Virus record (IMG/VR): IMGVR_UViG_3300005460_000001
Coordinates: 1 to 64,000 of that record
Strand: one strand, 5' to 3'
Source of the DNA: an uncultured virus (IMG/VR IMGVR_UViG_3300005460_000001)
Lineage: Duplodnaviria; Heunggongvirae; Uroviricota; Caudoviricetes
DNA: 64,000 bases
Shown here: positions 1,207 through 51,872 of the stretch, piece after piece
How positions within the stretch are numbered: position 1 is the stretch's first letter
How the letters are laid out: each line of letters opens with the position of its first letter
Notes under the pieces: generated by a model
What the model saw: only the letters and a program-made list of their open reading frames with translations
Database searches by the model: none
What the model was told of the DNA's origin: nothing
Made by a program: the position numbers and the translations under genes

Positions 1207-1797
1207 ATGTTGATTGAATTAGTTGGGGTTATGAAAGAAATAAAATATCTAAAAGATAACAAGATAAGATATTATGTGGCAAAGAAATATGTTCAGCATA
1301 GGCTTAAAAAGGATTTCTTTGATAAGTTTCATCTGGGAATCCATATAATGTATAGCATGATACAAGAATTGTTAGTGCTTGATTCAGATTTTGATCATAA
1401 TAAACAATATATATCTGGCATGATGAATGAAATACCAATGGTAAAGAGAGTATTGCCGCTTATATCTTATTATGGGTCAATTGAATTTGCCTTTAAGTAT
1501 TATAATTATGATTTAACAGTCTGTGCATCCGGTAAAGAGGGAGAACGTTGGCACATTCACATTAGTACACATGATAGTGATGAAAATTATATAACAATTT
1601 CATTGCATCCTACGCTAAAAAGATTAAATTTAGATAATACATTAAGACCAATAATCTTAATGTCTATATATAATTATTGTGTAGTCTATGTGTATGGAGA
1701 AGAATGCTTGGACAAATACAATAAATTATTGATGAAAGATAAAATATATCTTCTTAAAATAAGAGATATATTTAGAGAGGCAGGATATATATTATGA
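1207..1797 (+). CDS. hypothetical protein
   Basis: 196-aa ORF with AGGAGG RBS, coupled to the next gene by ATGA overlap. Confidence 0.8.
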   Translation: MLIELVGVMKEIKYLKDNKIRYYVAKKYVQHRLKKDFFDKFHLGIHIMYSMIQELLVLDSDFDHNKQYISGMMNEIPMVKRVLPLISYYGSIEFAFKYYNYDLTVCASGKEGERWHIHISTHDSDENYITISLHPTLKRLNLDNTLRPIILMSIYNYCVVYVYGEECLDKYNKLLMKDKIYLLKIRDIFREAGYIL

Positions 1798-2945
1798 TAC
1801 CTGGAATGGTATATGAGAATTATGATATTACACGTAAAGTAGTACGCGGCAATAAAGTTATTATAAGTATTGCTGATATACATTTCGGAAAGATAGACCC
1901 AAAGGTTCAGTATGAAATATTAGAAGAACAATTTCTTCAAAGGATAGAACAGTTACCGTTAGTAGATTTGATAGTAGTTGCTGGAGATTTATATGATAGG
2001 AAATTCATGGCAGATAGTAATCCCATAACTTATGCTACTTTATTTGTGGGAAGACTTATGGAGATTTCTAGAACAAAAAATGCGTCAGTAATATTATTGG
2101 CAGGTACAAAAAGTCATGATGCAGACCAGTTAAATGTGTTTTATCATTATCAAAATAATCCGTTTTATAAGGCCTATGTAATAGAAACTTTGAATATACT
2201 TCATATAGAAGGAATGTCTATATTATGCATACCGGAATTATATGGTGTAGATGAAAAAATATATGAATCCTATTTGTATCGAGACTATTATGACATGGCT
2301 ATAATGCATGGTACTATAAAAGGCGCTGTATATGGAGACAATGTAAAAGAGTCAAGATTGTTCACTATAAATGATTTTCAATATTGTTGTGGTCCGATTG
2401 TATCTGGTCATGTGCATACGGGAGGATGTTTTGATAGTGATTTTTATTATACTGGGTCTCCTATTAGAACTTCATTTGGGGAAGAAAATGCAAAGGGGTT
2501 TCTTATAACTCTATATAATCTTGATACCAGAAAGTATTATATGCATCTTGAGACTATACAGTCATTTAGATATGACACTATCAATATTGATGATATACTA
2601 TTGTCAGATCCTCAGGAGGTTATAGAGTATATCAATAACCTTAAGAAAAATAATGGAATTGATTATCTTCGTATTTGTATAGGTAGTGATTATCCTTCTG
2701 AAAAAATGGAACTTCTAAACCAATATTTTAGAAATAAGCAGGATATAAAGCTCAAAGTAGAAAGAGATAAAGTTCACGATAGGGCAATGAAAATACAAGA
2801 ATCAGAAATACAAAATAAATATGATTATGTATTCGACAAAACACTGACTGAATATGAAATTCTTGCTAGATATATAAATGATCAGGAGGGATATGAATTT
2901 ATAGATGGAGAAACACTAAAGAAAATAATATTGGAGGATATCTGA
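1794..2945 (+). CDS. sbcD: SbcD/Mre11-like metallophosphoesterase nuclease
   Basis: DIHFG, GDLYD, GTKSHD, MHG and GHVH calcineurin-like motifs; YTGSP..SFGE; SbcC partner at 45401. Confidence 0.85.
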   Translation: MIPGMVYENYDITRKVVRGNKVIISIADIHFGKIDPKVQYEILEEQFLQRIEQLPLVDLIVVAGDLYDRKFMADSNPITYATLFVGRLMEISRTKNASVILLAGTKSHDADQLNVFYHYQNNPFYKAYVIETLNILHIEGMSILCIPELYGVDEKIYESYLYRDYYDMAIMHGTIKGAVYGDNVKESRLFTINDFQYCCGPIVSGHVHTGGCFDSDFYYTGSPIRTSFGEENAKGFLITLYNLDTRKYYMHLETIQSFRYDTINIDDILLSDPQEVIEYINNLKKNNGIDYLRICIGSDYPSEKMELLNQYFRNKQDIKLKVERDKVHDRAMKIQESEIQNKYDYVFDKTLTEYEILARYINDQEGYEFIDGETLKKIILEDI

Positions 2946-2946
2946 T

Positions 2947-4757: not shown

Positions 4758-6599
4758 ATGGTTATTAAAGATAGAGTTAAAAAACCTGGGCATGGTAAAA
4801 CTTTTATAAAAAATAAAACCATTAGAAAACTTCCTATAAATTTTGATATAGAAAGTTTAAATCTTATGTGTACTTACGTTCTTACTAATAATAGGAGTAT
4901 TAAGCGTGGTGCATATATAAATATGAGAAATCTAATTGAGCTTCTTGATTTAGATAGATATATTCACGACCAAGAAAGATATAAGAGAATATTATTTATC
5001 AAAAAGGGCATAGAGGCTAGATTAGAAAGACAACTTACTGACCCTGTAGCTATCATTAAATATATTAATGGTGGATTCATGGAGAGTGATATTGTAGACA
5101 TTAATAATTTCATAGAAATGTCTACTGGAGAAATAGAATGGATAAACGAAACTGTAAGTAACACATTATCTTGCTCGTTTTTATATGAGAGGGCAGAAGA
5201 GGGAATTGATATCTTAACGAGGCTATTGGCAGCAGAAGCATCAAATATAAATTCCGTATTCATAGAGGCGAAGGAATATTTTAGGGATATTAATAATAGA
5301 TTTAGGAAAAATGATAGTGTTAATTCAACTGAGAAAACCTTTAACCTCGGAGAGGAGAGTTTTAAGAGCGTATTAGCTGATGTTTATGACACATTGAATA
5401 GTAAGTTTAGATATCTTGTAACTGGTATGCAAGGATTTAATCAACTTATCGGAGGAGGATTTGAAAATACAAGATGCTATTTATTATTCGGTCTTACTGG
5501 AGTTGGTAAATCTTTATCTATGCTGAATATAGCATATCAGATGAAGAAGTATAATAAAGGATTCAAACCCAAGGACCCAACAAAACGCCCATGTATAGTG
5601 TTTCTTACTATGGAAAACGATGTTACCGAAACAATCCAAAGATTATTTACTATAGCAACTGGAGAAGATATTAGAAATCACACTCTCGAAGAAGTAGAAA
5701 TGCTTCTCAGAACGCAAGGAGAACTTTACCTTAGTGATGATTCACCAATAGATTTGATAATTAAGTATAAACCAAATAGGTCTGTTGATACCGGATATCT
5801 TTATACATTAGTAGAAGATTTAGAGGATGAGGGTTATGAAACTATATGCTTATTCCAAGATCATGTAAAAAGAATTAGATCAGTAGCAGGGAATACCGAT
5901 TTAAGACTTGAGCTCGGTGATGTAGTGAATGAGATGAAAACGTTTGCTATTCTTAAGGATATTCCTGTAATAACTGACTCACATTTGAACAGGGAAGGGG
6001 CCAAAATTATAGATGAAAAATCTACAAGAGCTACAATGGATTTGACTAGAATGCTTGGAAAGTCTAATGTAGGAGAATCTTTATTGATGCTTGATAATGT
6101 AGATTTAGGTATAATTCTCAATAAGGAATTTGATGCCGAAGGCAATGAGTATATGGCATTTAAGAATATTAAGCAAAGAGTAAGGACTTATAGAGATTAT
6201 ATCTGCCAACCGTTCCATAAAGATAATTCTATTAAATTAATAGAAGATTTCTATAGCCCAGTTCCAGTATTTAAGGAAAGTTTATATACTGTAGAATCCA
6301 CATTAAATACATCTTATCATAATGATAAAGTCAAGACAAATGGGTATTCTACGAATATTAAATCCATTGATGACGGCGAGGATAATATATTTGAATTCTC
6401 CACTGTATATTCATCAGAAGACGTAAAGAAGATGCAAGAGCAACTTACAATACCAGAAACTAATCAAAGTTCTAACTTAATTGATTATACCAATCCTTAC
6501 ATGCAACAAAATATCCAAATGCCGCTGCAACCTATGCAGATTATGTATAATCCGCAGTTAGATGAGGTCGAATTGATAAGAGGTATGATATATGAATAA
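4758..6599 (+). CDS. dnaB: DnaB-like replicative helicase
   Basis: LVTGMQGFNQLIGGGF, Walker A GLTGVGKS, FLTMEN, QDHV and SHLNR motifs of SF4 helicases; Q-rich tail ending in RGMIYE. Confidence 0.85.
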   Translation: MVIKDRVKKPGHGKTFIKNKTIRKLPINFDIESLNLMCTYVLTNNRSIKRGAYINMRNLIELLDLDRYIHDQERYKRILFIKKGIEARLERQLTDPVAIIKYINGGFMESDIVDINNFIEMSTGEIEWINETVSNTLSCSFLYERAEEGIDILTRLLAAEASNINSVFIEAKEYFRDINNRFRKNDSVNSTEKTFNLGEESFKSVLADVYDTLNSKFRYLVTGMQGFNQLIGGGFENTRCYLLFGLTGVGKSLSMLNIAYQMKKYNKGFKPKDPTKRPCIVFLTMENDVTETIQRLFTIATGEDIRNHTLEEVEMLLRTQGELYLSDDSPIDLIIKYKPNRSVDTGYLYTLVEDLEDEGYETICLFQDHVKRIRSVAGNTDLRLELGDVVNEMKTFAILKDIPVITDSHLNREGAKIIDEKSTRATMDLTRMLGKSNVGESLLMLDNVDLGIILNKEFDAEGNEYMAFKNIKQRVRTYRDYICQPFHKDNSIKLIEDFYSPVPVFKESLYTVESTLNTSYHNDKVKTNGYSTNIKSIDDGEDNIFEFSTVYSSEDVKKMQEQLTIPETNQSSNLIDYTNPYMQQNIQMPLQPMQIMYNPQLDEVELIRGMIYE

Positions 6600-10849: not shown

Positions 10850-11293
10850 ATGAGTAATCAAGAAACAGAAAAGAAATTAATAAAGGGGATGGAGTATATA
10901 CCAGAAGGGGAAGATATTTCTGAAAAAGATTTATATACTCCCGGCATGGTGTACGAAGAAGAGAATAAGGATGAGAAAACTTATTTGGTACTTTTAGTAG
11001 GAGAGAACAGAGACGACGGTTCTACGGAATTTAAGGATTGGAACTTCGTAGTTGGAAGACAGGAAGTGTATGACTATATTAAGAGTTTTATAGAGAATGA
11101 ATATGTCTTTATAGACGTCCATAAGTCGTATATTATCTCTAACTCTTCTACTGTTACTATAGATAAGAAGATATCTATATTTAAATTTATGGTAACGATG
11201 AAAGAAAACGATGCTGTAAAAGACGATACTTCTTTTGATATCCATGAGTACGCTTATGAGGATGAAGAGGAGAACGAGGATGGGAAACAATAG
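10850..11293 (+). CDS. hypothetical acidic protein carrying two GMxY motifs
   Basis: 147-aa ORF, AAGGAGG RBS. Confidence 0.8.
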   Translation: MSNQETEKKLIKGMEYIPEGEDISEKDLYTPGMVYEEENKDEKTYLVLLVGENRDDGSTEFKDWNFVVGRQEVYDYIKSFIENEYVFIDVHKSYIISNSSTVTIDKKISIFKFMVTMKENDAVKDDTSFDIHEYAYEDEEENEDGKQ

Positions 11294-12377: not shown

Positions 12378-13148
12378 ATGATGAACAATTTCTTTGGACA
12401 AACTGGTTTTCCGAACTCAGGGTATGCGTATCAATTCACGAATCCCGCAATGAAGAAGCCAGTAGGTACGAACCCTTTGACTGATGAGGATGTAAAATTC
12501 TTGGCGCAGAAAGCGCCTTCATTTTCATTATCAGTTTCGAGGGAAGAATCTTTGCAGGCAATCTGCACACACCGGGTTGGTGGAGAAGATAGGCTCCGCC
12601 AGAACCAGGACGGGTCTTATACCTGTATGATTTGCGGAGCTACATTCCGTATGGCTGATCTGAGCCAGGATGCTGTCAATACTACTGTCGATGGGGTAGT
12701 CGACCTTCTTGAGACAACAAAGGTAATGTATAGAGACATTCCTGATGCAGTTTGTAAAGCATTCTTCCAGATGATACCATTCCTTAAGAAAACAAAGCAG
12801 ATGTATAAGATCGCGAATGACCACTTCGGACAGTATGGTGCGGCTATCAATAGCAACCAGTTCGGAGGAGGAAATGCGGCAGTATTATTGGCCGGTCTTA
12901 TGGGCGGTGGATTTGGAGGATACACACAGCCCGGTGCAGCTAGTTATGGAGGATGGCCAGGTGCCATGAATATGGGTCAAACAATGGACCCAGCGCAGCA
13001 GGCTCAGGCCCAGGCAGCGCAAGGACAGGCAGCACAGCCGAATGCAAACAATGTAAACTTCTTTGACGCAGAGTCACCAATTGCAGGGTCAGCAGCGCCT
13101 AATGCATCCGCTTCTGATGTTGTAGACAATAAGCAGTATACTCTGTAA
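12378..13148 (+). CDS. Zn-binding protein with G/Q/N/A-rich low-complexity C-terminus
   Basis: CTH...CMIC putative Zn site; GC-richer codon usage; AGGAGGT RBS; terminator downstream. Confidence 0.8.
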   Translation: MMNNFFGQTGFPNSGYAYQFTNPAMKKPVGTNPLTDEDVKFLAQKAPSFSLSVSREESLQAICTHRVGGEDRLRQNQDGSYTCMICGATFRMADLSQDAVNTTVDGVVDLLETTKVMYRDIPDAVCKAFFQMIPFLKKTKQMYKIANDHFGQYGAAINSNQFGGGNAAVLLAGLMGGGFGGYTQPGAASYGGWPGAMNMGQTMDPAQQAQAQAAQGQAAQPNANNVNFFDAESPIAGSAAPNASASDVVDNKQYTL

Positions 13149-29453: not shown

Positions 29454-30153
29454 AAAGCAAAGAGAAGAAATAGAAGAACTTATAATAAGTTCTTTTAATA
29501 TCTTGGACAAATCTGGTACTAATTCAGAGTATTACAAAGATTTGTTTAGTAAAATGAGTGATTCTCAATTTCATTCATTTATTGCAAAGAAATATCCTGG
29601 TAAATTTTATTATCGCCCATCAGTTACTGAACCTACGATGGATGACATAGAAGAAGCATTGAACTTTATTGGTGTTCCCTTAAGCGAGAAGATTAATATG
29701 CCTTGGGTTTATGAGGATAAGGATGGAAATCCAGTGCAGTCTAAAGAATGTACAGTTGTATATTTACATCATAAAAAGGTCCAGCAATTCATAACAAAGA
29801 AAAATAAATGGGCTATTTCTGTATCTAACAGAGATATGAAGGGTGGGCGCTTAATTGGAGCAGATAAAGGTGCTGTAACATCAGATAGAGAATTTGAATC
29901 TATGGAAGTTCAGTCTATGAATAATACCGTTGACGAGTTCTCTACGTTTAGGGCGGACTCTATGAAGTCTAAGAATATGGCTAATGCAATAATTGGGACT
30001 ACCGGTGTATTACATTTAGATGATGTAAAGGTAGATAAAGATGATTTCCTATCTAAGAACCTAATGAGTGCTTATATGATTGGAGCCCATTTGAATACGA
30101 ATATCGTAAATGAGGGTAATTATACTCCGACTACATTAAGATCGAAATCTTAA
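29446..30153 (+). CDS. putative RNA polymerase beta C-terminal fragment (second, probably virion, RNAP)
   Basis: CTVVYLHHKKVQQFITKKN...KGAVTSDREFESM resembles the beta 'VGxMYxxKLxH...GxRFGEME' region. Confidence 0.5.
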   Translation: MNKKQREEIEELIISSFNILDKSGTNSEYYKDLFSKMSDSQFHSFIAKKYPGKFYYRPSVTEPTMDDIEEALNFIGVPLSEKINMPWVYEDKDGNPVQSKECTVVYLHHKKVQQFITKKNKWAISVSNRDMKGGRLIGADKGAVTSDREFESMEVQSMNNTVDEFSTFRADSMKSKNMANAIIGTTGVLHLDDVKVDKDDFLSKNLMSAYMIGAHLNTNIVNEGNYTPTTLRSKS

Positions 30154-31662: not shown

Positions 31663-31670
31663 GAGGAATT

Positions 31671-34156: not shown

Positions 34157-36364
34157 ATGCAAAATTTTCATGAAATTATGGAAAAAGAATCTGAACGAAT
34201 AAGCTCGCTTGAACAGGTTCTCGGTAAAGGACTATACCAACCGTTTTCAATATCTAATTCTGGTTCCAGAAAAGTATTGTTTAGTACCCAGTTGGACCAC
34301 TCCATCCCGTTGCTTAATCCGGAAATTCCAATAATTTCTACAGGATATGAAAACAAGTATGGAGATTACTCAGCATCTATTATTAAGATGGATGATGATT
34401 ACGAGGTAATAAAGAAAATTTCTAAGTTTTCTCGTATTCCTAATCATCAGTATTTATTAATAATAAAAAATAAGAATACTGGTCAATTAGATGTGTTAGA
34501 GAGAATCATGTACAAGAACAAAACTGAATCTTATGGGTATCTATATGATACTAAAATAATGGATGAATTAGACGAAGGGTATACTATTAGAAAAGGAGAG
34601 ACGGTAAGGTCATCTAAAGCGTATGACGGATATATGAATCGTTGCGATGGAGTGAATCTCAAAGTGTCATATATATGCCAAGACAAAACTATGGAAGATG
34701 GCATCAGAGTTTCTCAATCTGCAGCTATTAAATTATCTTCTCCATTTATTAAGAAAATCCCCCCAGTATTTCTTAATGATAATGATATACCTCTTAACTT
34801 ATATGGAGATAGCGATACGTATAAATGCTTCCCAGATATAGGAGAGAAAGTTAATGGTGGATTGGTATTTGCTACAAGAAGAGAAAATCAGGACGATATT
34901 TTATATACGCAATCAATAGAAATGCTCAAACAGGTATTAATGAGCGATTCAAAGTATATAGTATCTGGGGATTCAGAGATAATTGATATAGATATCCAGA
35001 CGAATAATCCAGATATGCTTGGAAAGTTTCAGAATAGCCAGTTAAATTATTACTATGAGGAGAAACAAAGATACCTGTTTGAAATTATAACTACAGTAGA
35101 ATCCCTTGCGGCAAAAGGAGATAACTATATATCATATGAATTAGAAAAGTTGTATGTTGAAGCCAAAAGACAATTTCAGAATACAGAGTATTTATATGAT
35201 AAAACATTCTCTGGCACCATGTTAGAGATTACCATACTAGAAAGAAACATTCCATCTGTAGGAGATAAACTTTCTAATAGATATGGAGGAAAAGGAGTAA
35301 TATCCGAAATAGTATCCGATAATCTAATGCCCATAGATAAGGATACCGGGAAGGCAGTAGATATTTCATTTAATAGTTCCACATGTGTAAACAGATTAAA
35401 TGATGGGCAATTGAAAGAACAGTCTTTGACCCATATAGGCTCTAGAATTATCCAGTATATAGTACAATCTGGAATGGTACAAAATACGGATGCAGCTCTA
35501 GCACACATTGTAAAATTTGTTTTATTATGTTCTCCTCTTTATGGTAGAGTGTTGGATAGCATGATATTAGAGATGAGTGATGAAGACAGAGATATTTATC
35601 TTCAAAATATAATAGACAGTGGTTATATTGCTTTGTGTATCAAGCCGGCTAGTGAAAACCTGACCCTGGATCAATTAGATGTGATTTATAAAGAGTTCCC
35701 GTATGTTAAGCAAAGAGAAATGATGGTGCCTATAAAGGATAGTAATGGTAATATAAGATACGTACCATCTAGACGTCGTATAGTGGTTGGAGATATGTAT
35801 ATCTACAGATTGAAACAATATGCGGAAGAAAAATTCTCAGTAACAAGTTTATCATCTGTGAATATTAGAAATGAAAATACAAGGTCTAAGCTTTCAAAGA
35901 ACTATAAGAGTTTGCACTCTAATACTCCTATTAAGTTTGGAGATATGGAAAGTAATGATCTAGGCCATGCTGGTATTGAAAATGTATTAGCTATACTGAT
36001 GATTCATTCAGTGTCTCCACAGGCAAGAAGATTAGTTTATGAAATGCTTACAGATGACCCATACAATATTGATATACGACTCTCGGACAATGCGGTAAAC
36101 CGTACAGCACAAATAGCAAATATATATCTTAAAACAATGGGATATCGTCTAAAGTTTATCAAGATCAAAAAGAAGATACTCCATGGGTTATATAAAAAGG
36201 GTATGGTATATCATTGGGGAGATAAAGAGCTTCCTCGCGGCATGACTTACATCAGTGACGAAGAAGAGTATGATTTCGATAAGAATTATCAAAGAATGCT
36301 TGAAGCCGAAGAAGAGTTTGCTAAACGAGGAATGGTATACGAAGGTATGCATTATGAACCATAA
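34157..36364 (+). CDS. rpoB: multisubunit RNA polymerase beta subunit, C-terminal part (split)
   Basis: MEDGI, VGDKLSNRYGGKGVIS, VGDMYIYRLKQ and KFGDME. Confidence 0.9.
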   Translation: MQNFHEIMEKESERISSLEQVLGKGLYQPFSISNSGSRKVLFSTQLDHSIPLLNPEIPIISTGYENKYGDYSASIIKMDDDYEVIKKISKFSRIPNHQYLLIIKNKNTGQLDVLERIMYKNKTESYGYLYDTKIMDELDEGYTIRKGETVRSSKAYDGYMNRCDGVNLKVSYICQDKTMEDGIRVSQSAAIKLSSPFIKKIPPVFLNDNDIPLNLYGDSDTYKCFPDIGEKVNGGLVFATRRENQDDILYTQSIEMLKQVLMSDSKYIVSGDSEIIDIDIQTNNPDMLGKFQNSQLNYYYEEKQRYLFEIITTVESLAAKGDNYISYELEKLYVEAKRQFQNTEYLYDKTFSGTMLEITILERNIPSVGDKLSNRYGGKGVISEIVSDNLMPIDKDTGKAVDISFNSSTCVNRLNDGQLKEQSLTHIGSRIIQYIVQSGMVQNTDAALAHIVKFVLLCSPLYGRVLDSMILEMSDEDRDIYLQNIIDSGYIALCIKPASENLTLDQLDVIYKEFPYVKQREMMVPIKDSNGNIRYVPSRRRIVVGDMYIYRLKQYAEEKFSVTSLSSVNIRNENTRSKLSKNYKSLHSNTPIKFGDMESNDLGHAGIENVLAILMIHSVSPQARRLVYEMLTDDPYNIDIRLSDNAVNRTAQIANIYLKTMGYRLKFIKIKKKILHGLYKKGMVYHWGDKELPRGMTYISDEEEYDFDKNYQRMLEAEEEFAKRGMVYEGMHYEP

Positions 36365-36453: not shown

Positions 36454-38817
36454 TTGAATTCTTTGAGCTTAGACTTGAGTCAAATCATTAGAGACTGGCA
36501 GCAAGGAAAGCGCATTGAATATTGGCGTAACGAATTGCTTTCAAATAGTTCCCAAATTAACGAATATGTCGTGTCATTATTAAGAGGACCAATCTTACCT
36601 TGTAATCTTCCGTCTACTATAGAGTATAATGTACGTAATATTTTGATTATATCAAATATATTGTATAATAATACAAATGCAAGTGCATTATTATTGGAAG
36701 ATGGTATTTATGATAAATTGGTAACCTTTTACCATTATTATACTGGTAAAGATGTAGTAGGTGCAATACCAGTACGATTTAAAGATACAGTGGAAAAGAA
36801 ATCTGAAACTGTAATGATTAAGGGAATGGAATATTTGAATAGTGATTATGACAATAAGTTCTTTGAGAACTCATTATTCTTCGAGGACTTATATCATAAT
36901 GCTCCGTTCAACCCGGAAGTATCTCTATATCCGGGTATGACATATGATAATACAGTTACAAAAAGAATTAGAAATACAACACATGCGAATCCAGAATTAG
37001 TTGGAACTTTGGATAAATGCAAATTCTGTTTAGTTTCTCAAGCAAGGAATACAGATCCAAAGTTATTGGATGATCCAACTGTAAAGATCGTAGAAAGAGA
37101 TTTCTTTGCAAAACACATAGAGGAAGGATTGATAAATCCAAATGAAATAATTGATGTGTGTTTGGAACTGAAGTACGACGGAGTATCAATAGAAGCTACA
37201 ATATTCAATGATAAAATTGTTCGAGCCGGGACACGTGGAGATACTGAAGCTGATTTAGCATCTGATTTGACTCCTATTTTGAAAGGGTATAGGATGCCTA
37301 GAGCATTGCCTTTGAACAAGGAGATCAATGTCAAATTTGAAGCTATTATGACATACTATAATTTGCAAAAATACTCAGAAGCTAAAGGAAGAGACTTTAT
37401 TAATGGGAGAACAGCCATTATTTCTTGGATAGGTTCTTCAGACGCGTATAACTACAGAGAGCTAATTACTCTAGTACCACTGGCTACAGATTTAGTTGAC
37501 GAAAACGGACAGCATATAGACAGGCTTGTAGAAATAGAGTTCATGAATAAATTCCTTACAAGAACCGAGTTACTTAGGTATTCAGTTATAAGTGGGAATT
37601 TTGAAAGTGTACTATATCAAGTATATAAGTACTCTAAAGAAGCCGAATATATGAGAAAGCTTATTCCGTTTATGTATGACGGAATTGTTATATCATATCT
37701 TGATCCAAGAATTCGTCAAGCATTGGGCAGAAAATCGTTTATTAATAAATATACGATAGCCCTAAAATTTGAGCCGCTGGTCAGAAGGACCCGGTTTGAT
37801 CATTATACCTTTGAAGTTGGGCAGAATGGGGTCATCACCCCACGGATTTGGTATGATCCTGTGGAGTTTTTTGGCTCCATTCATCCAAAATCTTCTGGGC
37901 ACTCATATGGAAGATTTAAAACTTTATCTCTTAGGAAAGGAGATTTAATCGATGTCACCTATCGAAACGACGTCATGCCATATGTAACAAAGGCAGATTG
38001 TATAGAGAATGATAATAATCCTAATCCTATAATAGAGTTTCCGAAATTCTGTCCGGAATGCAATACTGAACTCAAGTTTACAGATTCCTCCGCCAGATGT
38101 CCAAATCCAAAGTGCAAAGCAGTGATGAGGAAGAAGCTCACGAATATGATGGCTAAGCTCCAGTTTAATGGGTTTGCTGAAGAAACTATAAATCAGCTTA
38201 ATATAAACTCATTTCATGAACTTATGCAATTGAAGCTACAAGATGTGGAATTCCTTGGACCATTAACCGCGCAATCGTTAATAGCTCAAATTGAAGAATT
38301 GAAAGTTAAGGGGTTGCCAGACTATGTTTTAGTTGGGGCTCTCGGGTTTACGAATTGTGCTGCCGCAGTTTGGAAAAAGATATTTTCTGTCATCACATTG
38401 CACCAGCTTATTGAGTTAGCTGATCTTAATTATATAGATGGAGTAGACGATATATGGTATATACTTGTAGATATTCCATCTATAGGAGAAAAGATAGCTC
38501 AAACGATTTGTTACGAGATTCCGGACTATATAGCAGATCTTATGTATATAAGGGATCACGTTAGGTATAAGATTACCTATGGAAGCAAATCAGTAAAGAT
38601 GCGATTCACCGGATTTAGAGATAAAGACTTAGCTGGTAGACTTGTAGAGGCAGGAGTGGATTTGTCAGAGGGATCAGTTACAAAGGATACAACTTTCTTA
38701 GTTGTTCCCTATGAAGGTTACAATACAGGAAAGAAATATAAAGATGCCAATAAATATGGGGTGCCGATTATTACCAGAAATGATTTGGAAGAGCATTTTT
38801 CCAATTATACAAGTTAA
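36454..38817 (+). CDS. ligA: NAD-dependent DNA ligase
   Basis: ELKYDG, TRGD, DGIV, ALKF, VGQNGVITP; CPEC..CPNPKC Zn finger; HhH; C-terminal BRCT. Confidence 0.92.
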   Translation: MNSLSLDLSQIIRDWQQGKRIEYWRNELLSNSSQINEYVVSLLRGPILPCNLPSTIEYNVRNILIISNILYNNTNASALLLEDGIYDKLVTFYHYYTGKDVVGAIPVRFKDTVEKKSETVMIKGMEYLNSDYDNKFFENSLFFEDLYHNAPFNPEVSLYPGMTYDNTVTKRIRNTTHANPELVGTLDKCKFCLVSQARNTDPKLLDDPTVKIVERDFFAKHIEEGLINPNEIIDVCLELKYDGVSIEATIFNDKIVRAGTRGDTEADLASDLTPILKGYRMPRALPLNKEINVKFEAIMTYYNLQKYSEAKGRDFINGRTAIISWIGSSDAYNYRELITLVPLATDLVDENGQHIDRLVEIEFMNKFLTRTELLRYSVISGNFESVLYQVYKYSKEAEYMRKLIPFMYDGIVISYLDPRIRQALGRKSFINKYTIALKFEPLVRRTRFDHYTFEVGQNGVITPRIWYDPVEFFGSIHPKSSGHSYGRFKTLSLRKGDLIDVTYRNDVMPYVTKADCIENDNNPNPIIEFPKFCPECNTELKFTDSSARCPNPKCKAVMRKKLTNMMAKLQFNGFAEETINQLNINSFHELMQLKLQDVEFLGPLTAQSLIAQIEELKVKGLPDYVLVGALGFTNCAAAVWKKIFSVITLHQLIELADLNYIDGVDDIWYILVDIPSIGEKIAQTICYEIPDYIADLMYIRDHVRYKITYGSKSVKMRFTGFRDKDLAGRLVEAGVDLSEGSVTKDTTFLVVPYEGYNTGKKYKDANKYGVPIITRNDLEEHFSNYTS

Positions 38818-39502: not shown

Positions 39503-39575
39503 TAATCTTTGATAAAAATTCGGGGAGGCATAATAAATGTCTCCCTGTTTTATTTTTAGTAAAGTGAGGCTTAAT

Positions 39576-40211
39576 ATGAATAAAGTGAAGATAAGAGATA
39601 CCATGTACGACGTAGTATCATTAGAAGAGTATATTAACAATAAGGAATTATACTTGCCTAGATATACTGCAATACATGATAAAGAAAACGGATTAGTGCT
39701 TCCGATAAAAACTCAATCGAATGAAACGGGTACTTGTATATCTGTGGAATCCGGAATGTCTTATGTGTTAAACTTACCAGAAGACACCAGCGAGTTTTCA
39801 GATAAGAATATAATTGATTTGGAAAACAACTCTTCTATAGGGGAATTGATAAAAAAGCAAGATATGGTGAGAGGGTTGGAGAGAGATATATTGATGGCAC
39901 CTGACCCTGACGATATATTCAGGCCCAAGATATTTGATGATGATGCTGGAGAAATGAAAGCATTAAAAGAGGCCGTAATTTGCAAGGGGATAGATCTTGA
40001 TAAATACGCTCCTAGATTCGGAGCAAACTTTAATAATGATAAGAGACTATTTAATAAGCCTACGATTTCATTGGCAATGCTTAAACGGATGTGTGAGGCA
40101 TTAGACATCGAAGCATCGATATCATTAAAAGATAAATCCTCAACAGTACCAAATCCAATAGGGAAGACTATAGAAGTAAAACTTACTGGTGTATCGGAGG
40201 AAGACAGTTAA
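39576..40211 (+). CDS. hypothetical protein with possible C-terminal HTH
   Basis: TISLAMLKRMCEALDIE resembles an XRE-type HTH tail; likely start at ATG 39576. Confidence 0.7.
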   Translation: MNKVKIRDTMYDVVSLEEYINNKELYLPRYTAIHDKENGLVLPIKTQSNETGTCISVESGMSYVLNLPEDTSEFSDKNIIDLENNSSIGELIKKQDMVRGLERDILMAPDPDDIFRPKIFDDDAGEMKALKEAVICKGIDLDKYAPRFGANFNNDKRLFNKPTISLAMLKRMCEALDIEASISLKDKSSTVPNPIGKTIEVKLTGVSEEDS

Positions 40212-41941
40212 TGAAAACACATTTAAATCAAGCGTCGTTTCTTAGGGAATTTTCTGACGAGTTCAGAGAGGATTTTAATCCGGCATTTTTCTATCGTTCT
40301 GATGACGATATCATTACAGAATTGCAGAAAGTTATTCTGTCTTGTCAGAGAGATAGATACTTTATGATTAAGGTAGAAAGCTTTGAGATTAAAACGGGAT
40401 ATGAGGAAATTTTAAATGAGCTCCGTAGAGACGAGTTCACAAGCAATAGAGCTAAAGACGATAAAGATAACAGATATAATTATGTAAATCTAAAGGATTC
40501 TGAGATTAAGTTATTGATAGTGAATTACTATATCAGGGTCTATGATGGGAATCCCGATAATCCTGAAAATACGAAGAGGTTACGCGTATTAATAGAAGTA
40601 CCAAGAATAGTAGACAAGTATTACTTTAAGATATTTGGTAATATATATTCTTCTATGTTTCAGGTTGTAGATGGCTCTACGTATAACAATACGTCGTCTG
40701 CAAATTCAAAGAATCAAAATGTAACCACCAAAACAGTTTTTATGGCTATACGTTTATACAGGTACAGAAAGCAACTGGATACAGTAAGTCATGGGGTTAT
40801 ACCGTGTACTTTCTTTTTATCTAGAATATTTAATAAGCCTGTGCTTATTTTTATATATTTCTTGGCTCGATTTGGCATTTACAGGACTTCTGAAATATTT
40901 AAGGTGTGGGATTTACGAGTATCCGAATCGTATGATCCTAATGATTCAGATAGAATAGTTGCAGAAAATCACGGGATTTATGTTTCTTTGCCCAAGTTTA
41001 TCTATGAGGAAGACCAAGTTGCTCAATCTTTGATGTATACCATAGTTAATTGCATTGGTAAAGATGCTAATATAAATAATATCTTTAGTACAGAATATTG
41101 GATGTCTGTACTAGGTGGACAGTTTGGGAAGAGGACAGAACGCAAAGGGCTATCCATATTGGATTCATTTGAATCGATATACGACCTTGCTACCATGTGT
41201 GATATTCATTTACCATATGAAGACAAGGATACTATTTATACTTTATTATTATGGGCGATAAGGGAATTCTCTGCATTGAGGCAAAAAGATATTTTTGACA
41301 TCGCTTTTAAGAAACTTAGGTATCCTGATTATATAGCTGCTTTGTACGCTATGAAGATGTCGAGAGGAATATTCAGAATAGCAGACTCTGGAAAGGTTAC
41401 CTTAGACCAGTTGATTAAAGCCATTAATATATATCCAGACTATCTCCTTAAACAAATCACAAAAGATAAACTGGTTAATTACCAGAATGCAGTGAATGAC
41501 CTTGACGCTATTCATGCATTAAAATTCACTTATAAGGGGGTAGCTGGAATAGGAGAAGAATCAAATAACAAAGGTTCGTCTGTACCGCCGGCATTCAGAA
41601 GGGTTCATCCGTCACATCTAGGGAGAGTTGATTTAGATACAGCGTCTCCTACAGACCCAGGGTTAACGGGTATGCTTTGCCCGTATGGCGAACTATACGG
41701 GACATCGTTATCAGATTATGAAGAGCCGAATACTTGGAGAGAGAAATCTGATGAATTGCTAAGACAATATAAGGAAATGTGTGGATTCCAAGAAGCTATG
41801 CTGTTTAAAAGAGAATTGGGATTTCCCATTGATAACAGTAGAATGGCATTATTGGACGATGCGAAAGATATGTTTAAGTCTCTAATGGAACCAGTTGTTG
41901 TTATTGAAAATGAATTGACAAGAGGAATGTTGTATTTTTAG
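40211..41941 (+). CDS. rpoB: multisubunit RNA polymerase beta subunit, N-terminal part (split)
   Basis: VPR..D.YFKIFGN and RRVHPSHLGRVDLDTASPTDPGL (beta 'RDVHPSHYGRxC..TPE..NxGL' region). Confidence 0.85.
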   Translation: MKTHLNQASFLREFSDEFREDFNPAFFYRSDDDIITELQKVILSCQRDRYFMIKVESFEIKTGYEEILNELRRDEFTSNRAKDDKDNRYNYVNLKDSEIKLLIVNYYIRVYDGNPDNPENTKRLRVLIEVPRIVDKYYFKIFGNIYSSMFQVVDGSTYNNTSSANSKNQNVTTKTVFMAIRLYRYRKQLDTVSHGVIPCTFFLSRIFNKPVLIFIYFLARFGIYRTSEIFKVWDLRVSESYDPNDSDRIVAENHGIYVSLPKFIYEEDQVAQSLMYTIVNCIGKDANINNIFSTEYWMSVLGGQFGKRTERKGLSILDSFESIYDLATMCDIHLPYEDKDTIYTLLLWAIREFSALRQKDIFDIAFKKLRYPDYIAALYAMKMSRGIFRIADSGKVTLDQLIKAINIYPDYLLKQITKDKLVNYQNAVNDLDAIHALKFTYKGVAGIGEESNNKGSSVPPAFRRVHPSHLGRVDLDTASPTDPGLTGMLCPYGELYGTSLSDYEEPNTWREKSDELLRQYKEMCGFQEAMLFKRELGFPIDNSRMALLDDAKDMFKSLMEPVVVIENELTRGMLYF

Positions 41942-42239: not shown

Positions 42240-42521
42240 ATGCTCAAAAGAGGAATGATTTATTTAGACGCTAATCAGTGTCCAAACTGTGGAGGAAAGC
42301 TACACTTGGTAAGTGTAGAAAAAAGCATTTCAAATCTTAGCAAGGATGGTATACCCGTTATAGATAGAAATATCGATGATGAAATAGAGATATGGCTGTC
42401 ATGTAAAAAATGTAAAACTTTGTATGATGTGGAAAAAAATGGTCTTTACTTTGGAATTAAAAGAGACCTGCCGGTTATTGAAAAGGATATTGATGATTTT
42501 AATCCGTTTTTAATAAATTAG
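42240..42521 (+). CDS. small Zn-ribbon protein with N-terminal RGMIY
   Basis: CPNC...CKKC; GGAGGT RBS. Confidence 0.75.
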   Translation: MLKRGMIYLDANQCPNCGGKLHLVSVEKSISNLSKDGIPVIDRNIDDEIEIWLSCKKCKTLYDVEKNGLYFGIKRDLPVIEKDIDDFNPFLIN

Positions 42522-43349: not shown

Positions 43350-44049
43350 TAAAGTAGTTTTAGATATATTGAATTTATTTAGCGCTGAGCCAGCTGCTGT
43401 GGCTAGTCAGATGCCTAGTATGGAAGTCGGAATGATAGCTAAGGCGTATTTTGGCATTGACCCCAAATCATTGGTGAGGGGTTTGGTTTTATACCCAACA
43501 CCTGAGATAAAAATGATTATAGCGGTTCATAATAATTCAAGTATAGAAAAGATTATGAACGATGTTATCATTTCTAATGGGGTATTTGCTGTAGCTTTTG
43601 TTATACCGTATAACCGCATTGAGACTACTGACGGTAATGCGATCAATGCAGCAAGATTAATTTCAGCTATTGTGACTTCATATGTAGAAATTATCTCTTA
43701 TAGTAAGAGAGTTTTGCTGGAGCAATTCGACGGGGGGAAAGCCGCATTGATCCTGTATCAAGCGGTCCCGGTGTTAGTTACTGAAATTATGCGTAAATTA
43801 TACGTGGGTCCAACTCTCCCATCTGTAATAGCTTCAACCTTAAGATTAGATACTAATAAGTATAGTATAATAACAGAGCAATGGATTGAAACTATTATAT
43901 CTATACTCGAAGACGATAATTCTGTAGAGGATTTGTTAGATAATGGATTTATCTGTGCTATCCCTCCAAATTCTAAAACATATCCCGGTCTATGGCCAAC
44001 GTTTGAAATTGCTTCCAAAGAGGAGGAGGAAGAAACTTCAAATGATTAG
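43312..44049 (+). CDS. hypothetical protein
   Basis: ORF; true start probably ATG 43342 after GGAGG. Confidence 0.75.
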   Translation: MVYFIMRRRKMFNKVVLDILNLFSAEPAAVASQMPSMEVGMIAKAYFGIDPKSLVRGLVLYPTPEIKMIIAVHNNSSIEKIMNDVIISNGVFAVAFVIPYNRIETTDGNAINAARLISAIVTSYVEIISYSKRVLLEQFDGGKAALILYQAVPVLVTEIMRKLYVGPTLPSVIASTLRLDTNKYSIITEQWIETIISILEDDNSVEDLLDNGFICAIPPNSKTYPGLWPTFEIASKEEEEETSND

Positions 44050-44332
44050 AGGAATGACTTATCTTAGAGAAGATACATGCCCGTCTTGTATGATGGAAAG
44101 AGCTTTAGATATATATGATGAACATGATAAAAGAGCGTATTTTCAAGTAATGCTGGATCAAAGCAAGACTGACAAATTACTTTCTAGAAGGTTTTATTAT
44201 TTTAAATGCAGTAATTGTGGAAAAACCTTTGACATAGATTGGTCTGGTTCTTCTAGAATCCCCATACCACTTAACGATAAAAAGAAGAAAGCATTTTTAC
44301 GAGAATATGCAGCTACGGGAAATCTCCTGTAG
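44042..44332 (+). CDS. small Zn-ribbon protein with N-terminal RGMTY
   Basis: CPSC...CSNC; ATG at 44042 after GAGGAGG. Confidence 0.75.
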   Translation: MIRGMTYLREDTCPSCMMERALDIYDEHDKRAYFQVMLDQSKTDKLLSRRFYYFKCSNCGKTFDIDWSGSSRIPIPLNDKKKKAFLREYAATGNLL

Positions 44333-48229: not shown

Positions 48230-49264
48230 TTAATATTCATTTAATATAGAAGTGTCATTACCAACTGTGATGATTGGATAAGATTCTCCAATATTAGTAT
48301 TGGTTGCAATTCCTGCAGAGAAATCAGGATGGGTATCTTCTAAGAAAGATGCATCTAATCTGTCTATCTCTGGGTGCGATTGTCCTGTAGTGACGTCTAT
48401 TACATCAAAATATGCCTGTCCCGTTGCCTTATTATATACGTATACCTGTTGTATATTTGGGTTAGCATCAGCCATCATTAAGTTTTGAGCAGGAGTTCTA
48501 TTGGATATATAGTTTTGATAACCTGTACTATCCGTATCGCTAGTTCCTGTGACTATATTTGGGATGGTTTGATTTGGTGAACCAGCATATGTCATCTCTA
48601 GTGTAGACGGACCAACTAATCCAGCCGTGCTTATGCCAGTTTGTCCTCCGACCGGAGTTGAAATGAGTGCATTATACATATCCATGATCGTCTTATCGTC
48701 GTCTTGATTGTCAAGCATCTTCATTTCTTTAGATCTCTTGAATTCCATTTCATTACATTTAGTGATGGTACTATTCAATTCCCTGGCTGCTGTTATTTTT
48801 TGATTTATAAAACTGCTGATATTACCCTGTAAGAATGATATTAATTGATATTTATTTCTTATTTGCTTAGCTTTTCTAAGATCATCTAAATCGCTTTTCA
48901 ATTCAGCAAGTCCTATATCTAATTGTGCTATTGCAGTTTTGAGAATTGCATCAGTTTCAGTATATTGTTCTTTATACGGGGCATTTGCATCTGCATCTTT
49001 AGGAACAATACCGGTAGTATTTATTTGATTAGAAGACTTTCTTTTCTTTTTTGATGGTTCTTCTTCTGTTATGGATAATGGTACAGATAGGTCATTTCCT
49101 ATTAAATTACTGAAATCCATATTGAATCCCTCTAAAGAAATATCTTCTTGTTTAGACTCTGTAACTGCTTGAACGGACTGTTTTTGTTTAGATTGCTTTT
49201 TTGATGCAAATCTTTTTCCTATATCTGGAATTGGTTCGTATGTCATCGCTCTTATAAGTTCCAT
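48230..49264 (-). CDS. hypothetical coiled-coil protein
   Basis: likely start at ATG 49264 (MELIRAMTYEP) after AAGGAGGT. Confidence 0.8.
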   Translation of the reverse strand: MELIRAMTYEPIPDIGKRFASKKQSKQKQSVQAVTESKQEDISLEGFNMDFSNLIGNDLSVPLSITEEEPSKKKRKSSNQINTTGIVPKDADANAPYKEQYTETDAILKTAIAQLDIGLAELKSDLDDLRKAKQIRNKYQLISFLQGNISSFINQKITAARELNSTITKCNEMEFKRSKEMKMLDNQDDDKTIMDMYNALISTPVGGQTGISTAGLVGPSTLEMTYAGSPNQTIPNIVTGTSDTDSTGYQNYISNRTPAQNLMMADANPNIQQVYVYNKATGQAYFDVIDVTTGQSHPEIDRLDASFLEDTHPDFSAGIATNTNIGESYPIITVGNDTSILNEY

Positions 49265-49428
49265 TTTGATAACCTCCTTAATATGATTTATTTGTATGTA
49301 AAAAGGCTCAAGTTGCAATTATACATTTTCTAAAACATTATTATAATGCATAATTGTGCCTGTTTAGGTGCAATTAGAGATTTGTTAATATATTATATAT
49401 AAAATAAGAGAAAGGATTATAAATTACT

Positions 49429-49968
49429 ATGAATGACGATTTACAAAAGTACTTAAGTGAAGTAATCAAAACTACAAAACTCGAAAAGATTGTTAAAGAC
49501 CCATCTTCTAAAATTGTAACCGTATGTGGGCCGTTAGGTAAAGACATTGATGGGTTTAATGCGAAGTTTATACTAGACGTTCAAAGTGAGTTAACTAAAT
49601 TAAATTGCCTTCCTTTTATTCCTATTATAACATGTAATGGTGATTTTTTGGAGAAGAAAGATTTATATAGAGTCGCTCATTTGAAAAAAATAGCAATGAG
49701 CGATATTGTGGTATTTGTTAATTTCTGGGGAGATGAAAGTTATAATGGGGAAGGTACTAATTTAGAAATAAGATTTTCTAGGCTTACTAATAAAACCATT
49801 TTGTATACCTATATCCCAACAGATGAAAATTACTCATATGAGGAATATAATGATTTAATTTTAGATTCCATTCCATTATATAAGGAGACTAAAAAGGAGT
49901 GCACTCATAACCCAGAACCATTAGATGGTGTTAGTTTTTATAAAGGAAGTGATGCTTCATGGGAATAA
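49429..49968 (+). CDS. nucleoside 2-deoxyribosyltransferase-like protein
   Basis: VTVCGP...HLKKIAMSDIVVFVN...GEGTNLEIRF..LTNKTI pattern. Confidence 0.55.
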   Translation: MNDDLQKYLSEVIKTTKLEKIVKDPSSKIVTVCGPLGKDIDGFNAKFILDVQSELTKLNCLPFIPIITCNGDFLEKKDLYRVAHLKKIAMSDIVVFVNFWGDESYNGEGTNLEIRFSRLTNKTILYTYIPTDENYSYEEYNDLILDSIPLYKETKKECTHNPEPLDGVSFYKGSDASWE

Positions 49969-51872
49969 TTAAGGGTTATCCAGAAGGAAGCGACATTACC
50001 GTTTTAAATACTGATTACCATTATCCTCATAAAAAAGAAGATGGAAAATATACTGATGGTGATATTACTATAGTATATAAGGACAATCGTACTGGTAAAA
50101 AGCACTTTCAGGTTATTAATAATCCGGATTATACTTTTTATGCTGCTAACGATGATGTATTAGTAGAGCATCCAGTTTTATATATAGAACGCGATAAGGT
50201 TCATCCGGTTACGGTCCCGTATAAAAATCTAGATAAAAAGATAGCCGAATTAACTGGCAATGAAGATTTTTATTACGAGAATATAAGAAATGGAAATAGA
50301 AGAAACAACAGAGAACTACATTATTTGCCGAATATCTTCGGTTCTACTATGAGTGTGGAAAATCATTATAGATACTTGTTCAATGAGCAGTATGTAAACA
50401 ATCCGTTTAAGATAAAGAAGGCCTACTTCGATATTGAGGCTGATACTATTAATATGGACGAAGACTTTCCAAGAATGGGTGAGTGTCCAATTAATGCGAT
50501 ATCTTATATAGATGAATCCACTAACATAATTCATTCATTCCTATTAAGAACTAAGGGAAATCCTTTAATAAAAGAGTTTGAAAATGAAGTTAAAAGTGGC
50601 AAGATATTTAATGAAGTTAAAGAATTTATAACAAATGCCGTAACTCCTAAATTGGCTCGCAAATACGGATTAGAAGATTTTGAAGTAAAGTTTCATTTTT
50701 ATGATGAAGACGATGAAATAAGATTAATTCAGGACTTCTTCTTATTGGTTAATTTAAATGAACCGGACTTCTTAGTAGCATGGAATATGGCATTCGATAT
50801 TCCATACATTGTTGAGCGTATTAATATTCTTGGATATGACCCAAGAGAAATAATGTGCCATAGAGATATAAAGCCAGAATTTAGACACGCTAAGTATTAT
50901 ATAGACACAAGAGCAGAAACGTTTGCTGAAAGAGGAGATTATTATGATATATCCTCTCATACTGTATATCTTGATCAGTTGATACAATTTGCTTCCAGAA
51001 GAAAAGGTCAGAAAGAGTTAGACTCATATAAACTCGATGATGTAGGCGATGTAATAGCAAAGGTACGAAAACTTGATTATAGTCACATTACTACAAATAT
51101 ATCTAAATTACCATATTTAGATTATAAGACATTTGTATTCTACAACATAATGGATACTATAGTGCAAAAATGTATAGAATCTAAGGTTAAAGACTTAGAC
51201 TATGTATTTGGTAAATCATTGGCACAGAATACTGATTATAGTAAAGTGCATCGACAAACCGTATACTTGACCAACCGTGCATATTCTGAATGGCTAAAAG
51301 ACGGATTAGTAATTGGAAACGGAAAGGGAATACAAGAAAAGGTCCCATTCCCAGGAGCATTAGTAAGTCAGCCGCTTAATAATTCTGATTACTCCAAGAT
51401 GAAGTTTGACAGACAAACTGTTGATATAGTAGATAATATGTGTGACTTCGATTATAAAGCACTGTATCCAACAACAGCATGTCAGAATAATATGGGTCCA
51501 AACACTCAAATTGGAAAGATTAAGATTGAACAGAAAGTATTTGAGAAAGAGAATCCATTTAATAATAAATTCTATGACCGCGGCGGACAGTTTATTGAGG
51601 ATTATACTTCTGGAGACGCTCTTAGCTTTGGTAATAGATGGTTACATCTTGGAACCTATACTGAAATATTGGACGACGTCACTGAATTCTTTACAGTAGT
51701 AATTCCAAATGCACAGCATATTAGAAACGGTATGCAAAATGGAATGTCCTATCAAACTAATGCATTGATGCCGGGTATGCAATATCTAGATGAAGGTGAA
51801 TATATGAAAGGAATGCTATATTACCCCGGTACAATGAATAAAAAGGAGGTACTTGAAAATATAAAATGGTAA
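49959..51872 (+). CDS. family B DNA polymerase, N-terminal (exonuclease + motif A) subunit of a split enzyme
   Basis: FDIEAD (ExoI), WNMAFDIPY (ExoII), YKLD, YNIMD (ExoIII) and DFDYKALYP (motif A); motifs B and C absent. Confidence 0.85.
   Translation: MGIIKGYPEGSDITVLNTDYHYPHKKEDGKYTDGDITIVYKDNRTGKKHFQVINNPDYTFYAANDDVLVEHPVLYIERDKVHPVTVPYKNLDKKIAELTGNEDFYYENIRNGNRRNNRELHYLPNIFGSTMSVENHYRYLFNEQYVNNPFKIKKAYFDIEADTINMDEDFPRMGECPINAISYIDESTNIIHSFLLRTKGNPLIKEFENEVKSGKIFNEVKEFITNAVTPKLARKYGLEDFEVKFHFYDEDDEIRLIQDFFLLVNLNEPDFLVAWNMAFDIPYIVERINILGYDPREIMCHRDIKPEFRHAKYYIDTRAETFAERGDYYDISSHTVYLDQLIQFASRRKGQKELDSYKLDDVGDVIAKVRKLDYSHITTNISKLPYLDYKTFVFYNIMDTIVQKCIESKVKDLDYVFGKSLAQNTDYSKVHRQTVYLTNRAYSEWLKDGLVIGNGKGIQEKVPFPGALVSQPLNNSDYSKMKFDRQTVDIVDNMCDFDYKALYPTTACQNNMGPNTQIGKIKIEQKVFEKENPFNNKFYDRGGQFIEDYTSGDALSFGNRWLHLGTYTEILDDVTEFFTVVIPNAQHIRNGMQNGMSYQTNALMPGMQYLDEGEYMKGMLYYPGTMNKKEVLENIKW

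Follow-up and report, generated by a model that had tools for sequence, protein, structure and literature searches.

GMxY as the local spelling of a putative family-wide docking tag in an uncultured jumbo phage, and a clamp-like candidate for its reader

The first 64 kb (positions 1 to 64,000, hereafter the window) of a 129,475-bp viral contig from an uncultured member of the Caudoviricetes (IMG/VR record IMGVR_UViG_3300005460_000001; ~33% G+C, rated 52% complete) encode, as judged from domain and PHROG matches, a jumbo-myophage replication and transcription set in which several enzymes carry copies of a short peptide, GMxY, at their ends or in insertions. The peptide is strongly enriched in the contig and concentrated on proteins that act on DNA or RNA, and at the same sites of orthologous proteins related phages carry other peptides, each lineage its own. 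From these sequence comparisons we regard it as settled that GMxY is how this lineage spells a docking tag found throughout the family, and that one shared reader co-evolves with the tag. The likeliest candidate for this role, to which we assign a probability of about 0.55, is the product of a small open reading frame (ORF 51866-52486) that directly follows the exonuclease half of the family-B DNA polymerase (PolB-exo) and that may resemble sliding clamps. A preliminary description of the window had proposed a multivalent signal for docking or for localisation, acting for example through a clamp-like hub, a viral-factory scaffold or import into a phage compartment; the peptide does behave as a docking tag acting at the protein level, and import into a chimallin-bounded nucleus found no support.

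Enrichment, placement and bearers of GMxY

With the contig proteome taken as 150 greedy ORFs (40,464 residues), GMxY occurs 31 times against 2.67 ± 1.64 expected from 5000 per-protein shuffles, whose maximum was 11, and is the top gapped tripeptide once collagen-like G-x-x repeats are set aside. A position matrix detected 29 sites of at least 12 bits, compared with 0.35 per shuffled proteome; G, M and Y are nearly invariant over these sites, with a single AMTY variant, and the extended consensus reads [LM]-[IT]-[RKP]-G-M-[VIT]-Y-[EDL]-D/E. Within the window, 20 copies fall in the three forward frames and none in the three reverse frames, and 17 of the 20 lie inside called ORFs, the out-of-frame copies having their Gly codons at 3149, 38055 and 62593. 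The preliminary description had listed 16 copies in nine proteins and a RAMTY variant, and had read codon differences among the copies as a sign of selection on the protein. Our frame scan of the window recovered every one of the 16 at its listed place, together with the variant near the N-end of ORF 48230-49318 on the minus strand, and added one weak copy (ESGMSY at 39753 in ORF39537). The codons do vary (Gly: GGA 17, GGT 8, GGG 4, GGC 3; Tyr: TAT 28, TAC 4), and the comparison with shuffled sequences that it had proposed places the motif well above background.

The proposed bias towards replication and transcription proteins was likewise borne out. GMxY is carried by 10 of 22 DNA- or RNA-acting enzymes as against 1 of 23 virion, lysis, metabolic, GroEL and tubulin proteins (Fisher p=0.0017); the one exception belongs to the virion and lysis class (1/18) and reads FLGMNY, which departs from the consensus, and the metabolic, GroEL and tubulin proteins have none (0/5). 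When the motif is restricted to [KRPQ]GMxY, the counts become 10/22 and 0/23 (p=0.0002), and the terminase, sheath, tube and head proteins all lack it. As to position, eight of the 31 copies lie within 45 residues of the N-end, 16 within 60 residues of the C-end and seven internally, so that 24 of 31 are in end zones that make up 37% of residues. Domain and PHROG alignments placed the copies at ends or in insertions, outside the aligned catalytic cores, in agreement with the first reading of the window, and the tails with three or four copies have acidic spacers.

In the SbcD-like nuclease (ORF 1794-2945), GMVY occupies residues 4-7 (1803..1814, + strand, as for all copies that follow unless stated), ahead of a Metallophos domain that starts at residue 23, and in the DnaB-like helicase (ORF 4758-6599) GMIY lies one residue from the C-end (6582..6593), the helicase core being residues 115-487. 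GMEY and GMVY (Gly codons at 10886 and 10943; 10886..10954) are found in the N-part of ORF 10850-11293, which has no assigned function. The 70-residue C-tail of the beta-C subunit of the non-virion RNA polymerase (RNAP; ORF 34157-36364, core at residues 14-667) has GMVY, GMTY, GMVY and GMHY (at 36200, 36239, 36329 and 36344; 36200..36355), and the N-extension of the NAD-dependent DNA ligase (ORF 36454-38817), whose adenylation domain begins at residue 218, has GMEY and GMTY (at 36823 and 36934; 36823..36945). The weak SGMSY copy (39753..39764) is internal to ORF 39537-40211 and its matrix score is below that of the other copies. GMLY is one residue from the C-end of RNAP beta-N (ORF 40211-41941; 41924..41935), GMIY forms residues 5-8 of a small Zn-ribbon protein (ORF 42240-42521; 42252..42263) and GMTY occurs in another Zn-ribbon protein (ORF 43943-44332; 44051..44062). 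The AMTY variant (LIRAMTYE; 49238..49249, minus strand) scores 13.3 bits, and the C-tail of PolB-exo (ORF 49959-51872, polymerase core at residues 37-532) carries GMSY, GMQY and GMLY (at 51741, 51774 and 51810; 51741..51821).

Beyond the window, tags were found on an RNAP beta'-like subunit (contig 65246-67351), on the polymerase half of PolB (68205-70367), on a second helicase with three copies (71264-72940), on another RNAP piece (95469-96473) and on six function-unassigned proteins. Thus, the two halves of the family-B polymerase, encoded 16 kb apart, are each tagged, and so are all four catalytic pieces of the non-virion RNAP. ORF 29446-30153, a homologue of the AR9 virion-RNAP subunit g078, is untagged.

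Same sites, different spellings in related phages

Among cultured phages, Bacillus phage AR9/PBS1 and the Staphylococcus jumbo phages SA1 and S6 come closest, with a beta-C identity of ~31%. Uncultured family members are numerous: of 7985 candidates scored, 1274 qualify as beta-C homologues at E≤1e-10, many of them on contigs of 200-270 kb; a single-protein scan of viral contigs with beta-C retrieved only a copy of the same genome. The four tail sites can be followed, in changing spelling, through the 120 beta-C homologues listed: GMxY is found only in the three closest of those listed (P0001-P0003; 99, 85 and 74% identity), a clade at 62-67% identity (P0004-P0035) has G[VI]xY, and more distant ones among those listed have PFx, AFx, P[IV]xF, LMxK or LFxR at the tail sites. 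Hence, with regard to conservation in related phages, which the preliminary description had left to be checked, the sites are kept on orthologues but the spelling GMxY itself is private to a lineage.

We then fetched from viral contigs 80 loci of ±10 kb around beta-C homologues, which represent 44 distinct lineages; L-numbers below denote fetched loci of relatives. In most of these lineages the tag takes some form of P-hydrophobic-x-F, apparently the ancestral state to judge from the RNAP tree, and the derived spellings comprise GMxY, AFx, PFIH, PIxH, FMxR, VMCK, K[IV]W and LF. The local spelling is repeated at orthologous sites in the ligase extension, at the beta-N C-end and at the N-ends of the Zn-ribbon proteins. 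PF.H was observed nine times against 0.13 expected in six proteins of locus L038, FM.R nine times against 0.42 in five proteins of L062, and MCK seven times against 0.29 in five proteins of L036. Other lineages have PFIH, FMxR or MC at the two ligase sites, and the L038 orthologue of ORF 42240 has PFIH at residue 17. The weak site of ORF39537 corresponds to GPFYH in the L038 orthologue and has no counterpart in the G005 (see below) and L036 orthologues. For a cross-lineage control, a motif was taken automatically from each RNAP tail and scored on the other proteins of the loci: over 42 lineages, these proteins matched the motif of their own lineage 103 times, where foreign motifs would predict 47 (Wilcoxon p=1e-4), with some automatic motifs poorly chosen, which makes the test weaker, not inflated.

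Whole-genome comparisons were made between the source contig (G000) and two complete relatives, G005 (263,571 bp) and G003 (249,585 bp), together with the complete, tag-less genomes of AR9 and SA1. In G005, FM.R emerged de novo as the most enriched gapped tripeptide of the proteome, with 41 occurrences against 3.4 in 32 proteins, and FMxR stands at matching places on the orthologues of tagged proteins: at residue 7 of SbcD (4 in the source contig), 587/593 of DnaB (609/613), 113 and 147 of the ligase (124 and 161), and 611, 623 and 635 in the PolB-exo tail (595, 606 and 618). Further matches were seen at the beta' C-end, in the helicase tail and at an RNAP N-end, as well as at residue 10 of the ORF10850 orthologue and residue 5 of the orthologue of ORF 48230-49318. 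Over 66 source/G005 orthologue pairs, 11 have both spellings, five FMxR only, six GMxY only and 44 neither (Fisher p=3e-5). The reverse check gave 11 copies of GMxY in G005 and four of FMxR in the source contig. Moreover, six free-standing HNH homing endonucleases of G005 begin with the tag, and four RNAP-like proteins of virion-RNAP-type PHROGs in that genome are untagged.

The tag of G003 is PIYF (P.YF 25 against 5.6 expected, PI.F 31 against 9.0), mostly in one copy per bearer, as exemplified by PIFF at 598/626 of DnaB and one P[IV]xF in the PolB-exo tail; the source/G003 pairs number seven with both spellings, four with the G003 spelling only, eight with GMxY only and 31 with neither (p=0.010). 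No repeated tetrapeptide was found in the beta-C and beta-N tails of AR9 and SA1, and their ligases have no N-extension. The AR9 and SA1 loci have no comparable motif; the AR9 locus (L100, 42 kb) is rich in S.FS (14 against 2.7 expected, in 11 proteins).

Because some thirty unrelated proteins have been respelled together, we infer one shared reader that changed along with them, and a single co-evolving reader would in turn account for each lineage of this uncultured AR9-related jumbo-phage family having its own spelling at the same sites. GMxY would accordingly form the core of a docking peptide of 8-10 residues, [LM]-[IT]-[RKP]-G-M-x-Y-[DE], displayed on flexible ends and insertions of its clients, namely both PolB halves, two helicases, the NAD-dependent ligase, SbcD, the non-virion RNAP subunits and small Zn-ribbon proteins, with one phage-encoded partner reading all copies and co-evolving with them.

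ORF 51866-52486 and other possible readers

The candidate reader (51866..52486, + strand) is an untagged protein of 206 residues, and the start of its ORF overlaps the stop of PolB-exo. Its orthologues were missed by BLAST and jackhmmer on greedy ORF sets and were found by position, one each in G005 and G003. We fetched 80 loci around PolB-exo and searched them with a hidden Markov model of the family. In 66 of the 80 loci an ORF lies just downstream of PolB-exo, and in 53 of these 66 it is of one family with 51866; with the family model, a member was detected in 70/80 loci, the ten exceptions being L146, L178 and all but one of the nine most distant loci (L187-L189 and L191-L195; polymerase identity ≤35%). 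The profile identified a single gene in each of the three tag-bearing genomes (source contig, G003 and G005) and none in the complete genomes of the tag-less AR9 and SA1, a distribution that speaks for 51866 as reader. The protein evolves fast, with 26% identity to its G005 counterpart over 192 aligned residues compared to 49% for PolB-exo. Only nine word-level homologues were found, at 97, 70 and 35-42% identity, and by profile at E≤0.001 the family comprises 907 representative clusters. Mutual information between its columns and tag class placed four of the 12 top columns at residues 108-117, a signal that is confounded by phylogeny and that we do not use as evidence.

Several comparisons hint at a clamp. 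Among the ESM Atlas neighbours of 51866, eight of ten rows are Rad9, beta-clamp, gp45 or PCNA clusters, with template-modelling (TM) scores of 0.47-0.54. A 43-sequence profile of the family had archaeal PCNA (1ud9_A) as its best match among 177,635 PDB sequences (E=0.004), with the N-domain in register; a 143-sequence profile gave the same top hit (E=0.014), and PCNA was the only PDB sequence found. The likeness to clamps is at most one of fold. The preliminary description had named this ORF first among its candidate partners, and it remains the best that we found and looks clamp-like by sequence profile and predicted structure, with no clamp family among the Pfam matches listed.

A number of observations weigh against 51866 as a clamp or as the reader of the tags. 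The Atlas model has a mean predicted confidence (pLDDT) of 0.51 and its TM scores do not exceed 0.54, and the PCNA match is marginal and covers the N-half only. No Pfam clamp family was matched by the 43 members (E≤1; all 18 matched families), nor was there a clamp among the 25 Pfam families listed, of 51 matched, for the 143 members (E≤0.1). Alignment of the family against T4 gp45 with hhalign gave a probability of 0.3, and an internal-repeat test found no profile similarity between the two halves of the protein. Clamps are usually acidic, and the isoelectric point of this protein is 6.9. Nor did a clear clamp loader turn up: the AAA+ protein at 22055-23509 matches the clamp-loader family phrog_168 over the AAA core only (E=7e-12), and it matches best a family without assigned function. 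The lack of a detected member in AR9 and SA1, given above in favour of 51866, could reflect divergence past the reach of the profile. On the side of the clients, tags on all four catalytic RNAP pieces are more than the tethering of one complex should need, and neither the source contig nor G005 has a tag on gyrase, UvsX, Dda, primase or SbcC.

Were 51866 the reader, the tags would act like the clamp-binding motifs of T4, so that enzymes and late RNAP would be tethered to a ring on replicating DNA, and tails with three or four tags could gain avidity by occupying several sites of one multi-site ring. The tagged homing endonucleases would be selfish elements that make use of the local code. Taken further, the tag may be a private, fast-respelled address code that gathers some 20-30 proteins of replication, repair and late transcription per lineage on the lineage's own clamp-like hub and is unreadable to relatives, thereby coupling phage RNAP to replicating DNA in the way that T4 couples the host RNAP, isolating co-infecting relatives and being exploited by tagged homing endonucleases; for this whole picture we have only tentative confidence, well short of that for 51866 as reader.

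Respelling implies a shared reader but does not name it, and the docking peptide might instead be read by another hub of phage or host, such as the proteins encoded at 87274, 12378 or 38906, or one in the missing half of the genome, an alternative that we regard as unlikely though the strongest of those considered. The contig is 52% complete. Seven untagged proteins without assigned function (11235, 12378, 29031, 38906, 41984, 87274 and 92578) are present in all three tag-bearing genomes, and 35 further core proteins lie outside the source contig. The 249-residue protein at contig 87274-88023 (L002:9274-10023), which is conserved in both G005 and G003, contains an N/S-rich linker, ends in an acidic tip and has a build that resembles single-stranded-DNA-binding proteins, and no family hit. 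The protein at 12378-13148, in the replication cluster beside the tagged ORF10850, combines a Zn-ribbon-like core with low-complexity ends rich in Q, M, G and Y; the composition of its tail is conserved in G005 and G003 but the tail sequence is not, and ESM Atlas predicts it to be mostly disordered, with no usable neighbour. None of these candidates lies beside the polymerase or has clamp-like neighbours, however, and ORF 38906 (HU/IHF-like), tried as a clamp, has a confidently predicted fold (pLDDT 94) that is not that of a clamp. The protein at 31671, a 287-residue alpha-solenoid (AlphaFold2 pLDDT 91, with generic HEAT/ARM-like matches only) next to the tubulin gene, was also rejected as reader: it is present in 61/80 loci and is absent from the complete, tag-bearing G003, though G003 keeps tubulin. 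PDB sequence searches with 24544, 38906, 39537, 87274, 12378 and 31671 yielded nothing below E=0.2, and when 11 neighbour families were compared by pairwise identity across 70 close lineage pairs, none proved to diverge specifically where the tag changes. A host hub, moreover, would hardly explain differing spellings in sister phages at 63% RNAP identity.

Less probable still is an address signal that, in the manner of a nuclear localisation signal, brings DNA-acting proteins into or onto a replication compartment or factory rather than tethering them to a clamp. It would fit the separate tagging of each polypeptide of the split enzymes (the four RNAP pieces and both PolB halves), the N-terminal tags of the six G005 homing endonucleases, and the lack of tags on the virion-RNAP homologue at 29446, the four G005 RNAP-like proteins and metabolic and virion proteins. 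The family also encodes a tubulin, and the bearers resemble the proteins that a 2026 jumbo-phage review (PMC13282480) gives as cargo of the chimallivirus nucleus, where helicase, ligase and non-virion RNAP are selected through Imp1/PicA and virion and metabolic proteins left out; like chimalliviruses, this is a jumbo phage with its own RNAPs and tubulin. Against it, chimallin was found in none of five records, four of them at least 93% complete: a search with phiKZ gp54 gave nothing in the source contig and G001-G005, and Pfam PF25677 nothing in the source contig, G001-G003 and G005, a very divergent shell protein being able to escape both. The review places AR9-like phages, which have no chimallin, outside the nucleus-forming family and describes known import as relying on surface patches, not on terminal signals (PMC13282480), whereas the peptide here is linear and terminal. 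Such a compartment would have to admit gyrase, UvsX, primase and Dda as well, yet these are untagged, and no candidate shell or importer was identified.

The peptides might also be homotypic stickers, beta-prone segments on acidic spacers that bind one another and co-condense their bearers, possibly with 12378, in the absence of a folded receptor. The tails with three or four copies on acidic spacers and the conservation of a protein with Q/M/G/Y-rich tails in the replication cluster would suit this, but near-invariant G, M and Y in 29 sites point to a defined pocket, many bearers have a single copy at their extreme end, and most bearers in G003 have one copy only; we consider it very improbable. 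A processing or modification site for a protease or modifying enzyme, which a short, exposed and sharply defined motif could be, has even less in its favour: where a tag starts at residue 4 or stops one residue short of the C-end, a protease would have nothing to take off, the Tyr position is F, H, I, R or K in other lineages and so offers no common acceptor residue, and no dedicated enzyme was found. Chance or composition might be thought of in an AT-rich genome in which a collagen-like gene inflates some tripeptide counts, but it is refuted by the shuffles (31 against 2.67 ± 1.64) and by the relatives with their orthologous sites, and no copies occur in the three reverse frames of the window.

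Relation to known systems and other features of the genome

The kind of system that a clamp-like 51866 would represent is already known, as a clamp hub with short client motifs: T4 gp45, and PCNA with its PIP and APIM clients. In T4, according to PMC7892883, linker-borne peptides shared by the polymerase, ligase, gp33 and gp55 bind a hydrophobic patch of gp45, and the clamp tethers RNAP to DNA. The statement in the preliminary description that no such motif had been described therefore needs qualifying, these T4 motifs being a described analogue, whereas the spelling GMxY itself matched nothing in literature searches, and a full-text search found no paper describing such tags in jumbo phages. 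As in T4, a short end peptide on a linker is common to polymerase, ligase and late-transcription machinery, and a small, putatively clamp-like gene lies in the replication cluster, here a candidate from sequence. The clientele greatly exceeds that of T4, with at least 19 bearers in half a genome and 32 in G005. It takes in helicases, SbcD and homing endonucleases and, where T4 has accessory factors of the host RNAP, the catalytic subunits of a multisubunit RNAP that the phage itself encodes. Other differences from T4 are that tags may also stand at N-ends or within insertions and number up to four per protein, that their spelling is recoded between lineages, and that no sequence similarity between the putative clamp and gp45 could be detected.

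The likeness to PCNA lies in a hub with many DNA-metabolism clients that dock via a degenerate motif in disordered ends, divergent motifs being accepted by one pocket, as set out in PMC6881253. GMxY fits neither the PIP consensus (Q-x-x-h-x-x-a-a) nor APIM ([KR]-[FYW]-[LIVA]-[LIVA]-[KR]) given there (PMC6881253), which is a further point against a clamp-like reader, and PCNA motifs are conserved across eukaryotes whereas GMxY changes between phages with RNAP 65% identical. With AR9/PBS1, SA1 and S6 the source genome shares split non-virion RNAP beta subunits and a similar gene order (AAA ATPase, UvsX, beta-C, ligase, beta-N). It differs from AR9 and SA1 in the repeated tetrapeptide of the beta tails, in the N-extension of the ligase and in having a gene that the 51866 profile detects.

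What appears new is how wide the clientele is, the tagging of every catalytic piece of a phage multisubunit RNAP, the N-end, insertion and tandem placement of tags, and lineage-wise recoding. If 51866 is indeed a clamp that reads the tags, this would be the widest clamp clientele seen in a phage and the first virus-own multisubunit RNAP with clamp-binding tails on every catalytic subunit. Respelling over about thirty proteins between close relatives is a rare natural example of hub and client co-evolution, raises the question of how such a switch of spelling proceeds without loss of function, and hints that co-infecting phages are kept apart by a molecular barrier. In annotation the tag has a practical use, since it marks function-unassigned proteins as handling DNA or RNA (10850, 42240, 43943, 72992, 90548, 91302, 93975 and 94791).

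The replication genes of the window comprise SbcCD, DnaB-like and Dda-like helicases, gyrase B and A, UvsX, the NAD-dependent ligase and the split family-B polymerase; the window further encodes split multisubunit RNAP subunits, tubulin, GroEL, sheath, tube and terminase. The tubulin, encoded ahead of the solenoid protein in the 30424-32534 region, is recognised by weak Pfam and PhuZ PHROG matches. A transposase-like ORF (phrog_4285; 17502-18617) lies between gyrB and gyrA. At contig 95469-98665 an RNAP subunit gene is apparently split by an HNH endonuclease ORF (96996-97802), both flanks matching one G005 gene, and the PolB-exo ORFs of several relatives end early at a conserved place, as if interrupted by an intron or intein. 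The GroEL-like chaperonin at contig 88749-90488 is conserved in G005 and G003 and is untagged. A collagen-like G-x-x tail-fibre protein (contig 104064-106109, minus strand) dominates the tripeptide statistics of the contig proteome (GP.G, QG.Q), and near the tail genes of G005 (L093:15498 to L094:4054) five paralogous Kelch-repeat beta-propeller proteins are encoded in a row.

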